Shown here: positions 32,340 through 36,686 of the stretch, piece by piece
How positions within the stretch are numbered: the first letter of the stretch is position 1
Layout: each line of letters opens with the position of its first letter
Position numbers and translations under genes: made by a program
IMG/VR virus record: IMGVR_UViG_3300030104_001062
Coordinates: 1 to 53,834 of that record
Strand: one strand, 5' to 3'
Origin: a virus
Lineage: Duplodnaviria > Caudoviricetes
DNA length: 53,834 nt
Notes under the pieces: model-generated
The model's input: the letters and a program-made list of their open reading frames with translations, nothing else
Told to the model about the DNA's origin: nothing
The model's database searches: none

Positions 32340-32535
32340 TCATTTTCATATATATGATCAGCACAAAGATTTGTCATTTCAAATCGTGGGTAAAACTAAC
32401 TTCATTAAATGGTTAAATGAATGTACGACTGAACGTTTAGTTGACTATGGTAGATATAAATACTTTACAACTTATTCAGAATTGAGTAAGTTCTTAAAAA
32501 GTAAAGGAAAGGATATAGATAATGAGAGTGTATAG
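32323..32535 (+). CDS. Early hypothetical protein
   Basis: GAGGAG RBS before ATG 32323. Confidence 0.6.
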   Translation: MPYLNNHFHIYDQHKDLSFQIVGKTNFIKWLNECTTERLVDYGRYKYFTTYSELSKFLKSKGKDIDNESV

Positions 32536-33667
32536 TGCATTTAATGGCTTTAGTGGTGCTAATGTTGCTCTAGATAGAGCAGATAGAAAAGTAACTACAT
32601 ACTTAGCTAGTGAGATAGATAAATGGTGCAATGCCGTTACTAGATACAACTACCCCAATACAAAATTTATTGGGGACATAACTAAACTTAATCCAAATAG
32701 TATAAAGGACATTGATCTGATGATCGGTGGATCGCCTTGTCAAGATGTATCCTTTAGTGGAAAAGGTAAAGGTTTAGTTGAAGGTGAACGATCTAATTTG
32801 TTCTTCGTATGGTTGGAACATCTCAAGACAATCAAACCAAAGTACTTCTTGTTGGAGAATGTCAAGATGAAAAAAGAATATCAAGATATGATTTCTGATG
32901 CTCTTGGTGTTCAGCCTATGATGATTCCGTCTAGTCTTGTAAGTGGACAAAAACGAGATCGTCTGTATTGGTTTAATTGGAAGTGTGACTTACCAAAGGA
33001 CAAAGGTATTTATCTACAAGATATAGTTGAAGATGGTGCAGTTGATAGAGATAAGTCTTTCTGTATAGATGCAAACTATTGGAAAGGTGGTAATCTTAAA
33101 TCATACTTCACAAAGAATAGACGACAGTTAGTATTTGACAATCATAGGTGTATCCAAGTCGGTGAAGCAGATATAAAAGGTTATGATGTGATCAAACGAG
33201 TGTATGCAAGAGAAGGTAAATCCCCAACTCTAACAACTATGCAAGGTGGACACAGAGAACCAAAGGTAATTTGTGGACAGATGGTAGGTCGTAAGATTAA
33301 TCCTAAAACCAATAAACGAGATGACTACAATCCTAACATTAAAACTAAACAACGTATTGAGTTGAAAGGTGATGGTAAAAGTGGTGCTTTGACAACTGTA
33401 CAGAAGGATAATCTTGTTGTTACTGATAAGTATTGGAGAGCATTAACACCTAAAGAGTGTGAACGTCTGATGACACTACCTGATGACTATACTATGTTTG
33501 GAGATTTTGAGGAAAACAACTATGCACATTACAAAGAATCTATTGGAGATGCCGATTGGTATAATGATATAAAGGACATATCCAAGACTCAACGATATCG
33601 TATGCTTGGTAATGGTTTTGTTGTTGATGTAATCGCTCACATATTAAGGAGTATGCCTAATGGCTAG
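32522..33667 (+). CDS. C5-cytosine DNA methyltransferase, probably multispecific
   Basis: SEID, GGSPCQ, ENV, QKRDR, LTPKECERL, RYRMLGNG; variable region with three KS-x-(C/T/A)-(I/L) modules. Confidence 0.92.
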   Translation: MRVYSAFNGFSGANVALDRADRKVTTYLASEIDKWCNAVTRYNYPNTKFIGDITKLNPNSIKDIDLMIGGSPCQDVSFSGKGKGLVEGERSNLFFVWLEHLKTIKPKYFLLENVKMKKEYQDMISDALGVQPMMIPSSLVSGQKRDRLYWFNWKCDLPKDKGIYLQDIVEDGAVDRDKSFCIDANYWKGGNLKSYFTKNRRQLVFDNHRCIQVGEADIKGYDVIKRVYAREGKSPTLTTMQGGHREPKVICGQMVGRKINPKTNKRDDYNPNIKTKQRIELKGDGKSGALTTVQKDNLVVTDKYWRALTPKECERLMTLPDDYTMFGDFEENNYAHYKESIGDADWYNDIKDISKTQRYRMLGNGFVVDVIAHILRSMPNG

Positions 33668-35382: not shown

Positions 35383-35592
35383 ATGAATATGGTTGATATA
35401 ATTCATACTACAACTGAATTAGAAACTTTAGAAAATGATCTAACTGTTGAAGTTTCAAAATTTATTCGTGAACGTCTACAAAATTCATCACTAGATTTTA
35501 TTGGTGGTAATGGTCTAGATATTTTAATTGATACTAATATTGATATTGAAAGTATTGTATCCAAAGCTTTAATTGAAAGGAAAAATAAATGA
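35383..35592 (+). CDS. Small acidic early protein
   Basis: GAGGGG RBS; coupled ORF. Confidence 0.6.
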   Translation: MNMVDIIHTTTELETLENDLTVEVSKFIRERLQNSSLDFIGGNGLDILIDTNIDIESIVSKALIERKNK

Positions 35593-36686
35593 GTGATCAA
35601 ATGGATATTGAAGAACTATTAACTGAAAGTGACAATGCAAATGTTACTCCATTTAAAACTAACATTCCTCCAAAGTGGTCTGTATCATTAGATGATAATG
35701 GCTATAAACAAATGCCAAATGGTGTTGAGTTTATTCATGATGATGTAAGGAATAATCGATTGTTTGAAGATGTAGGAACAGTTGAACCTACTCCATTATT
35801 TGTAGATAAACCATTTGGTGTAGGTATGGGAACAATGCAAAAAGTTGATAATTATAGAGCGTTGATTTCAACTCATACGGGTGATGTTTTAAACTGTCGA
35901 CCAATTTCAGATACTTATAAACTTGTTAATCACTCAGAATTGTTTGAAAAGCAGGGAAACCATTTGAAGGAAAATAGTGATTTGCCTTTAGATAATGTTG
36001 AAGTAATTGATCGAGTATTTGAGAATGGAAGACGTGCAACTAGAACTATTCATTTTAATGATTTAAAGATGGACGTTGGACAAAATGATCTAGTTAAGTG
36101 TCGTTTAGATGTTTTTAATTCTGTCGATATGTCGTGGGCATTCCAAGTCTTTAGTGGTGCTTATCGATCACTATGTCAAAACACTCAAGTATTTGGGGGT
36201 GAAAAAGCATACCAACAAAAGCATTTACATAGTAAGAATTTAGATGTTGATGCTTTGATGAACAATGCTCAGACTAGCTTGTCATCATGGAATAATAATA
36301 AAGAGCAGATGAAAGAGTGGAAAGTGTCACCAATTTCAGATAAACAATTTGCGACATTCTTAGCAAATACTCTATGTCAAGTTGAACGTGGTGTAGGAAG
36401 TCGTTTGGTTGCTGATAGTCAATATAAGGTCAATAATAAGTTATTGAATTTTATGACACAAATATTCCAAAAAGAAAGTCAAGATTGTGGTGCAAATATG
36501 TGGAGTGCTTATAATGCTTTGACTTATTGGTCTACTCATACTGATGCAGATTATGTCGATGTCGATGGTAAAAGTCAGCGATTGGGTGAAACAAAGTCAA
36601 AGCATACTGTGCAATTACAACGTCAAGATAAAGTCAGAAAGCTATTGTCATCTGATGCTTGGAATGAGTTGTCATTAGTTGCATAA
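35589..36686 (+). CDS. DUF932-family protein
   Basis: YKLVNH, NSVDMS, RSLCQN, MWSAYNALTYWSTH. Confidence 0.8.
   Translation: MSDQMDIEELLTESDNANVTPFKTNIPPKWSVSLDDNGYKQMPNGVEFIHDDVRNNRLFEDVGTVEPTPLFVDKPFGVGMGTMQKVDNYRALISTHTGDVLNCRPISDTYKLVNHSELFEKQGNHLKENSDLPLDNVEVIDRVFENGRRATRTIHFNDLKMDVGQNDLVKCRLDVFNSVDMSWAFQVFSGAYRSLCQNTQVFGGEKAYQQKHLHSKNLDVDALMNNAQTSLSSWNNNKEQMKEWKVSPISDKQFATFLANTLCQVERGVGSRLVADSQYKVNNKLLNFMTQIFQKESQDCGANMWSAYNALTYWSTHTDADYVDVDGKSQRLGETKSKHTVQLQRQDKVRKLLSSDAWNELSLVA

Follow-up and report, generated by a model that had tools for sequence, protein, structure and literature searches.

A phage C5-methyltransferase with three exchangeable recognition modules in a genome where certain restriction sites survive only under the enzyme's predicted targets

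The window analysed here is the full IMG/VR virus record IMGVR_UViG_3300030104_001062 (Caudoviricetes; 53,834 bases, estimated completeness 98%), and its subject is the open reading frame (ORF) at 32522-33667, which encodes a predicted C5-cytosine DNA methyltransferase (hereafter the methylase) whose variable region carries three tandem modules resembling target-recognition domains (TRDs). Because its large terminase is 50-55% identical to the terminases of Roseobacter phages CRP-1 to CRP-738 and of Pelagibacter phage HTVC033P (50-53% for CRP-9 and CRP-603), we regard the phage as an uncultured relative of the CRP/HTVC033P group of marine podoviruses, which we take to be the group called "HMO-2011-type". 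DNA searches of the phage collection with the methylase gene and with the first 20 kb gave no match. The features of the gene are as follows, with residue numbers in amino acids (aa) and invariance assessed in 69 homologues.

32522..33667, plus strand: C5-cytosine DNA methyltransferase gene, 381 aa; an ORF with PF00145 and TIGR00675 matches
32540..32557, plus strand: motif I, FNGFSG (aa 7-12), the S-adenosylmethionine-binding loop; aligns with the N-termini of M.HhaI and DNMT3
32732..32743, plus strand: motif IV, SPCQ (aa 71-74), with the catalytic cysteine C73; P72, C73, and Q74 are invariant
32855..32863, plus strand: motif VI, ENV (aa 112-114); invariant
32948..32962, plus strand: motif VIII, QKRDR (aa 143-147), which bounds the variable region on its N-terminal side; invariant at R145 and R147
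33044..33136, plus strand: module 1, type A1 (aa 175-205), DRDKSFCIDANYWKGG...RRQLVF, a TRD-like cassette recognized from cassette variation among relatives; within it DRDKSFCIDANYWKG, located in the translation at 33044-33088
33170..33268, plus strand: module 2, type B/F (aa 217-249), DIKGYDVIKRVYAREGKSPTLTTMQGGHREPKV, by tblastn and BLASTP a homologue of the phi3T TRD that we take to read GCNGC; the string DIKGYDVIKRVY...GGHREPKV was located in the translation at 33170-33268
33272..33412, plus strand: module 3, type Ca (aa 251-297), CGQMVGRKINP...KSGALTTVQKDN, TRD-like and possibly a CCSGG reader, from cassette variation and site statistics; the string CGQMVGRK...LTTVQKDN was located in the translation at 33272-33412
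33437..33469, plus strand: motif IX, RALTPKECERL (aa 306-316), by motif location the C-terminal border of the variable region
33500..33583, plus strand: acidic insertion of 28 residues (aa 327-354) that separates motif IX from motif X; among 18 aligned homologues it varies or is missing
33608..33619, plus strand: motif X, GNGF (aa 363-366), with invariant residues G363 and N364

Profile searches confirm membership of the PF00145 family (E 1.9e-36; TIGR00675, 3.9e-38), and the translation is that of an intact C5-cytosine methyltransferase, with six core motifs (I, IV, VI, VIII, IX, and X) all intact and in canonical order. The PDB matches are to the catalytic domains of M.HhaI, M.HaeIII, and DNMT3A/B. 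Motif I is of the F-D/N-G-x-S-x-G type, and over the N-terminal half (32522-32980) the DNMT3A/3B catalytic domains (E ~1e-14) align about as well as M.HhaI. An AlphaFold2 model of the protein has a mean predicted local distance difference test score of 73, with values above 90 in the catalytic core and mostly below 50 over aa 172-299. Confidence is also low for aa 334-343 of the acidic insertion, and no TRD-like core is visible in the insertion (aa 327-354).

The span between motifs VIII and IX measures ~155 aa and is made up of three units, with cores KSFCI (aa 178-182), KSPTL (aa 233-237), and KSGAL (aa 286-290). The preliminary description, made from the DNA letters and ORF translations, had placed three tandem modules with KS-x-(C/T/A)-(I/L) cores here, and all three were located in the translation at the positions it gave. 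The variable region is therefore enlarged and holds three tandem TRD units, where two or more, of ~35-55 aa each and each with a T-L-like core of its own, mark a multispecific enzyme. Residues K178, C181, K233, P235, and K286 are invariant in the 69 homologues and L237, L290, T291, and T292 nearly so, and whole modules are gained and lost among relatives, which together argue that the modules are not chance patterns. The PF00145 profile aligns the module 3 stretch to its TRD-proximal part.

The variation among relatives is extensive. Marine metagenomes hold thousands of relatives, and among the best 120 listed identity runs from 93% down to ~40%. In a sample of 18 aligned homologues (P-numbered), module 3 is gone as a clean block in three (P0032, P0033, and P0077); apart from this loss all three are close to P0012, and P0032 is nearly the same protein. 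Two others (P0036, P0116) have a second module-3-like copy ahead of module 2, and five (P0047, P0100, P0069, P0082, P0110) carry additional inserted modules, each with its own T-L-like core. We also took 156 relative loci from IMG/VR, out of ~600 or more relatives, and classified the module orders of the 146 complete enzymes (135 distinct sequences) by regular expression; the counts are approximate, and the expressions missed the B-like module of loci L149-L156.

A1-B-C: 50 enzymes
B-C: 27
A1-B: 19
A1 alone: 15
no A1, B, or C: 12
C alone: 11
B alone: 9
C-A1-B: 1
A1-C: 1
C-B: 1

Judged by eye, L169-L172 (304 aa) and L161 (268 aa) have module 1 as their sole TRD-like module, and L176 and L188 have only one of C type. 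Module 1 is swapped for other K-x-x-C-L-T-A-x-x-Y-K-G modules in L037, L049, L052, and L056, is doubled in L016, and is absent in L017. Modules 1 and 3 occur without module 2 in L059, and L145 has a module-3 copy ahead of module 1. On the strength of this presence, loss, swapping, duplication, and re-ordering among ~150 relatives, the three modules behave as autonomous, exchangeable cassettes, an anatomy that defines the multispecific enzymes of Bacillus phages. The tandem TRD architecture that the preliminary description proposed is borne out by the way in which the three vary independently.

Module 2 has homologues in characterized enzymes. Searched by tblastn, it is 59% identical over 49 residues to phi3T and SPbeta and 64-67% identical over 39 residues to H2 and rho11s, and it also matches marine, Vibrio, Flavobacterium, and lactic-acid-bacteria phages. 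A BLASTP alignment of the window enzyme with that of phi3T has 26 of 37 residues identical across module 2, against 26% overall. The preliminary description had noted this resemblance, and the phi3T string that it quoted occurs exactly in the translated phi3T gene (M13488). The enzymes of phi3T, SPbeta, H2, and rho11s all contain a homologue of module 2; that of SPR has none. The rho11s copy of the phi3T-like module has a single G-to-E change, at the second glycine of GGG; the window module keeps the PTLTTM-x-GGHREPK core, with Q in place of the first glycine of the phi3T GGG. We take phi3T, SPbeta, and H2 to methylate GCNGC, SPR and rho11s not to do so, and all of them to methylate GGCC; the GCNGC-reading TRD of phi3T is the one called the "F" domain. 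Combined with these presumed specificities, the distribution of the modules would assign GCNGC to module 2 and GGCC to the C-terminal module that the Bacillus enzymes share.

The composition of the window is in keeping with such a target. Under a dinucleotide expectation GCGC (0 sites against 34 expected), CGCG (0 against 16), and CCWGG (0 against ~39) are absent, and GCNGC is not depleted (117 observed, 65-105 expected). There are 17 GGCC sites, 13 of which are GCGGCC or GGCCGC and overlap GCNGC, the other 4 being GGCCC, and all 15 CCGG sites are CCCGG or CCGGG, the CCSGG context. An order-3 Markov null model that kept the 4-mer counts (400 simulated genomes) puts the per-site chance at 0.049 for the GCNGC overlap and 0.155 for the CCSGG context; the observed counts have binomial tail probabilities of 2e-14 and 7e-13, and none of the 400 simulations reaches either.

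The same contexts recur in the other genomes that encode the three-module enzyme. Besides the window (WIN) these are two close complete relatives, G016 and G017, and two distant genomes, G003 and G004 (~67-68% DNA identity to the window over 2-3 kb), for a total of 253 kb in five genomes. The GGCC sites divide into 14 overlapping GCNGC, 7 in GGSCC, and none elsewhere in G016 (21 sites), and into 13, 6, and none in G017 (19 sites); both GGCC sites of G003 lie in one of the two contexts, and G004 has none. CCGG lies in CCSGG at 23 of 23, 21 of 21, 13 of 13, and 9 of 9 sites in G016, G017, G003, and G004, respectively. Over the five genomes, 42 of the 59 GGCC sites overlap GCNGC, 17 are in GGSCC, and none is elsewhere; all 81 CCGG sites are inside CCSGG; all 22 CAGCTG sites overlap GCNGC (chance ~1/3 per site); and 4 of 5 CGCG sites overlap GCSGC. 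All three GCGC sites in G016 and G017 sit in GCAGCGC, a count that leaves out the two in G003. The proposal of the preliminary description, that such 4-mers are kept only where the phage's own predicted targets overlap them, thus extends from the window to 59/59 GGCC, 81/81 CCGG, and 22/22 CAGCTG sites. Few sites are conserved: 3 GGCC and 2 CCGG between the window and G016, and 5 GGCC and 9 CCGG between the window and G017. As most sites are non-orthologous, new ones seem to keep arising and to survive only in protected contexts. When the flanks of every 4- and 6-mer palindrome were scanned without bias across the five genomes, no protected context beyond these three emerged. With homology to the phi3T domain and four kinds of genome evidence, the reading of GCNGC by module 2 is well supported, and methylation of that motif is predicted.

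Other biases in the window concern motifs outside these targets. CTGCAG is over-represented (the window has 27 sites where 9.8 are expected, and the five genomes together have 141 where 48 are expected), and a tie between this enrichment and the methylase was rejected, as only 11 of the 27 sites overlap GCNGC. AT-rich six-base palindromes that are scarce or absent include GAATTC (0 against 16.8 expected), CTTAAG (1 against 20.4), AGTACT (1 against 16.7), ACTAGT (2 against 16.7), TTCGAA (0 against 10), and TCATGA (4 against 20.4); GGNNCC (1 against 47) and CCNNGG (5 against 47) are scarce as well.

Relatives identified by their terminase broaden the comparison. The scan gave 80 loci, one of which (L007) was already in the set; the 79 new loci (L238-L316) were scanned, and the 33 of at least 9 kb were tabulated. 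Among the 17 loci with G+C of at most 40%, CCGG is in CCSGG at 168 of 168 sites and GGCC in either context at 88 of 88, although these loci are not independent, since two are parts of the G016 and G017 contigs and orthologous regions are frequent among them. Five relatives, G018-G022 (46-53% G+C; two at least 96% complete), gave no match in a PF00145 search of all five records. In loci of the methylase-free relatives 212 of 468 CCGG sites are in CCSGG and 135 of 236 GGCC sites in either context. The preliminary description had named the same bias in relatives lacking the gene as evidence that would count against its proposal; the bias is not found in these five, in a comparison confounded by G+C (35% on the side of the window phage, 46-53% in the methylase-free relatives). 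CAGCTG occurs 0, 0, 0, 1, and 0 times in G018-G022, a scarcity to be expected if a nuclease that cuts CAGCTG threatens the clade and such sites are tolerable only in phages with the methylase. CCWGG is absent from all 33 tabulated loci, including methylase-free ones with at least 100 CCGG sites; its avoidance is clade-wide and independent of the methylase.

Could the contexts arise without methylation? Host nucleases with longer or degenerate sites might spare GCGGCC, GGCCC, CCSGG, and GCAGCTG, and the methylase might serve regulation, packaging, or evasion of mismatch repair. Hosts with many restriction systems are indeed suggested by the near-absence of many unrelated palindromes from the window, and the methylase-free relatives, given their different G+C, probably infect other hosts. 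Yet five palindromes (GGCC, CAGCTG, CGCG, GCGC, and CCGG) are spared only under three pentamers, for one of which the homology of module 2 had given an independent prediction, and for CCGG alone the nucleases would need to exclude nine flank combinations. We regard such an origin of the contexts as very improbable.

We instead favor, with a probability of about 0.7, the interpretation that the gene encodes an orphan multispecific phage C5-methyltransferase, in which module 2 reads GCNGC and the other modules read CCSGG and GGSCC or GGNCC, and that sites overlapped by these motifs are shielded from host nucleases. One catalytic core (motifs I-VIII and IX-X) would bear the three tandem target-recognition cassettes. 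After infection, the enzyme would methylate the phage DNA at cytosines of the predicted motifs, and host cutters of GGCC, CCGG, CAGCTG, CGCG, and GCGC would be blocked wherever a methylated pentamer overlaps their site. Over evolutionary time unprotected copies would be purged, and new copies would persist only in a protected context. That an overlap can block cutting is supported by work in which HaeIII and BstUI cutting of GGCC and CGCG inside GCSGC sites reads out methylation of the GCNGC type (PMC8936443).

The assignment of modules 1 and 3 is less firm. They most likely read CCSGG and GGSCC (or GGNCC), as judged from the genomes, which leave the pairing of module and motif loose. We compared module content with motif avoidance (observed/expected, O/E, below 0.3) in 112 genomes or loci, each 8 kb or longer, ignoring kinship. 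CCSGG is avoided in 9 of 43 with a C module and 19 of 34 without (Fisher p = 0.002), and among A1 carriers in 6 of 25 with a C module and 18 of 26 without. Eight complete or long genomes with a perfect CCSGG context (118/118 CCGG sites) all have a C-type module, their A and B types being varied, and the two genomes without a C module lack the pattern (3 of 26 sites in G011, 0 of 5 in G009). A scan for never-avoided motifs per module in the 112 genomes was swamped by motifs that none avoids; from its contrast version only the lean of C to CCSGG emerged. Module 3 may therefore read CCSGG, toward which the genomes lean weakly. The preliminary description had suggested testing whether module content co-varies with k-mer bias; C-module carriers avoid CCSGG less often, and no module class tracks the site contexts cleanly.

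For module 1, GGCC was rejected because the A1 carriers WIN, G004, and L014 avoid it, CCSGG because 18 of 26 A1-positive, C-negative genomes avoid it, and GGNCC is doubtful given that the A1 carrier G011 has 0 GGWCC and ~1 GGSCC. Vibrio phages 1.132.O, 1.242.O, and 1.122.A, with B and/or Ca modules, avoid nothing and were uninformative. GGWCC is mildly depleted in the window clade (13 against 29 expected), and in G002 31 of 38 GGCC sites are in GGCCC and GGWCC is absent. The third motif looks like GGSCC, with GGNCC as the alternative; of the targets first put forward, GCNGC and CCSGG fit the contexts, with methylation itself a prediction, and GGNCC looks rather like GGSCC. As a separate observation from the 112 loci and genomes, GGCC is avoided in 40 of 64 with a C-type module and 5 of 48 without (Fisher p = 2e-8), whatever the A1 and B status, which may reflect host groups.

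These ambiguities invite a narrower account, in which only one or two specificities are active, that of module 2 for GCNGC among them, module 1, module 3, or both are inactive pseudo-domains or structural elements of the small domain, and the CCSGG and GGSCC contexts come from methylation by a host enzyme or from another phage function. Module 2 alone has a characterized homologue, no module class cleanly tracks the CCSGG or GGSCC contexts, and rho11s, whose near-copy of the phi3T module differs by that one G-to-E change, is not known to methylate GCNGC, which makes inactive modules plausible in enzymes of this type. However, A-type and C-type modules each stand alone in apparently intact enzymes and so must be more than scaffold, conservation of all three modules is high in the 69 homologues, the record contains no other methylase of three common families, and genomes with a C module avoid CCSGG less often. 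We consider this account unlikely, if far from negligible, next to a multispecific enzyme with three working cassettes.

Several points weigh against that multispecific reading. The TRD map and the targets of the phi3T, SPR, H2, and rho11s enzymes are presumed as background, and the structural model is unreliable over aa 172-299, the module region. GCNGC is hardly avoided in any relative (5 of 55 with a B module, 1 of 56 without), so its normal abundance proves nothing. The methylase-free relatives differ in G+C, as noted, and the comparisons of modules with site contexts ignore phylogeny. Module 1 (A1) is without a supported target, since GGCC, GGNCC, and CCSGG each meet counter-examples. Certain C-type carriers avoid CCSGG and tolerate CCGG, with 3 of 38, 0 of 15, 1 of 12, and 0 of 9 CCGG sites in the CCSGG context in L038, L043, L030, and L083, as do Vibrio phages 1.021.A (1/64) and 1.210.O (1/22), which have C-like modules; and L072, L071, and L149-L156 have the CCSGG context without a C module. 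Modules of type C may not all share one target, or modules may have been gained and lost more recently than the k-mer composition took shape. It could also be that some modules lack activity.

The mirror pattern of common CCGG rarely placed in CCSGG occurs also in L039 (0/9), L068 (1/44), and L032 (0/12). It looks as if the hosts of all these phages (L038, L043, L030, L039, L068, L032, L083, 1.021.A, and 1.210.O) cut CCSGG and not CCGG.

The methylase appears to be an orphan, without a partner nuclease. It is itself the one PF00145 match in the record, and searches of the record for PF01555 (N6/N4) and PF02086 (Dam-type) methylases found none. A domain search of the nine ORFs around it returned only Toprim and DUF932 matches and no nuclease domain, with several small ORFs belonging to no family, among which a novel nuclease might lie. 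The DUF932 domain (E 1e-17) is in a 365-aa ORF at 35589-36686, which follows the methylase gene at a distance of 2 kb and lies among small ORFs that belong to no family. These searches bear on a further possibility, that the methylase performs the first step of a cytosine hypermodification (5-methylcytosine to 5-hydroxymethylcytosine and beyond) and that a bulkier base protects the DNA. Phage C5-methylases are paired with TET enzymes in viral metagenomes (PMC8256090). The record holds no Tet_JBP match, which is weak evidence because the control genomes gave none either, the nine neighbouring ORFs hold no dioxygenase or glycosyltransferase domain, and retention of particular sites fits sequence-specific methylation; hypermodification is the least probable of the explanations considered here, with only a slim chance of being correct.

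Among known enzymes the closest in design are those of Bacillus phages. M.Phi3TI/M.SPBetaI, whose targets we take to be GGCC and GCNGC, is an orphan phage C5-methylase, as the window enzyme appears to be, and it too has its TRDs in tandem in the span from motif VIII to motif IX; the phi3T module KGHDAIKRVY...SPTLTTMGGGHREPK is the one that matches window module 2 at 26 of 37 residues. The backbones, in contrast, are 26% identical, and motif I of the window enzyme is of the FDG-x-S-x-G type, closer to DNMT3. The phi3T GGCC domain (VLTPEREEKRQNGRRF...FTVNT) has no counterpart in the window enzyme, and the other two modules are unrelated; GGCC as such is unprotected in the window phage. M.SPRI, M.H2I, and M.Rho11sI also place several TRDs on one core, with four modules in a row in H2 and rho11s. 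The enzyme of SPR differs in lacking a module 2 homologue (identity to the window enzyme is 26-27% for phi3T and SPR), and in pairwise comparison the CCGG/CCWGG/GAGCTC-type modules of these enzymes have no similarity to window modules 1 and 3. The Bacillus enzymes form one closely related lineage (50-100% identity), whereas the window enzyme is one of an extensive family from marine sources and is missing the C-terminal module common to all four Bacillus enzymes, which speaks against descent from the SPbeta lineage. By prediction, then, the window enzyme works like the SPR/phi3T type, and it is outside their lineage. With only one TRD common to both backbones, the comparison points to exchange of TRDs between unrelated backbones.

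A further likeness is to M.BatI of a Bacillus anthracis prophage, compared here by description (PMC8936443). This C5-methylase also acts on the GCNGC family, through a single short TRD with the specificity GCDGC, and leaves GCCGC unmethylated; it could not, for that reason, shield GGCCGC, which the window genome keeps.

The same backbone family, at 37-41% identity, is found in CRP-9, CRP-603, ICP1, phi92 and its relatives, and Vibrio phages of the Nahant collection, with module sets that differ from that of the window: module 1 is paired with a C-type module in Escherichia phage phi92 and in Vibrio phage ICP1, Vibrio phage 1.132.O has B and Ca modules, and Roseobacter phages CRP-9 and CRP-603 have a module 1 that is 86% identical to the window's. 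The homologue of ICP1_2006_E (L126, 127142-128125) is interrupted by an in-frame TGA immediately behind motif IV, its annotation splits it into two ORFs, and in the first 50 kb of that genome CCGG is without the CCSGG context (2/21). In the available portions of the BASEL collection paper, no specificity is reported for these homologues (PMC8594841). The RIMS-seq2, phage TET, and BASEL papers, in the portions available, are silent on the marine methylase family. We found no description of marine multi-TRD methylases in a literature search that left most subscription journals uncovered, so that their absence from the literature is unproven, nor, with the same partial coverage, one of sites that survive only under a phage's own overlapping methylation.

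To our knowledge, the main source of known multispecific C5-methylases is a single small set of Bacillus phages that was investigated decades ago. The enzyme described here has the same multi-TRD design on an unrelated backbone, in abundant uncultured marine phages and with a far richer diversity of cassettes, and the clean signature in the genomes predicts methylation of GCNGC, CCSGG, and GGSCC. Methylation and avoidance would act together in these phages, with avoidance complete except where the phage's own predicted methylation overlaps a site. Differences in cassette set and site context across phages could assign TRD specificities without culturing.

More tentatively, and at somewhat less than even odds, marine phages of the HMO-2011-type group and many others may share a natural combinatorial library of autonomous TRD cassettes that is shuffled even between backbones as far apart as those of the Bacillus phages, with genomes sculpted around the cassette set that each carries. 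As part of the same guarded proposal, the library would comprise at least three positional classes, each with many variants. If this is true, the targets of an enzyme would be readable from the contexts of the few restriction sites that survive in its genome, cassette-to-motif rules drawn from metagenomes alone would yield a recognition code for C5-methylase TRDs, and the contexts would provide a map of the restriction systems that dominate in uncultured marine hosts.

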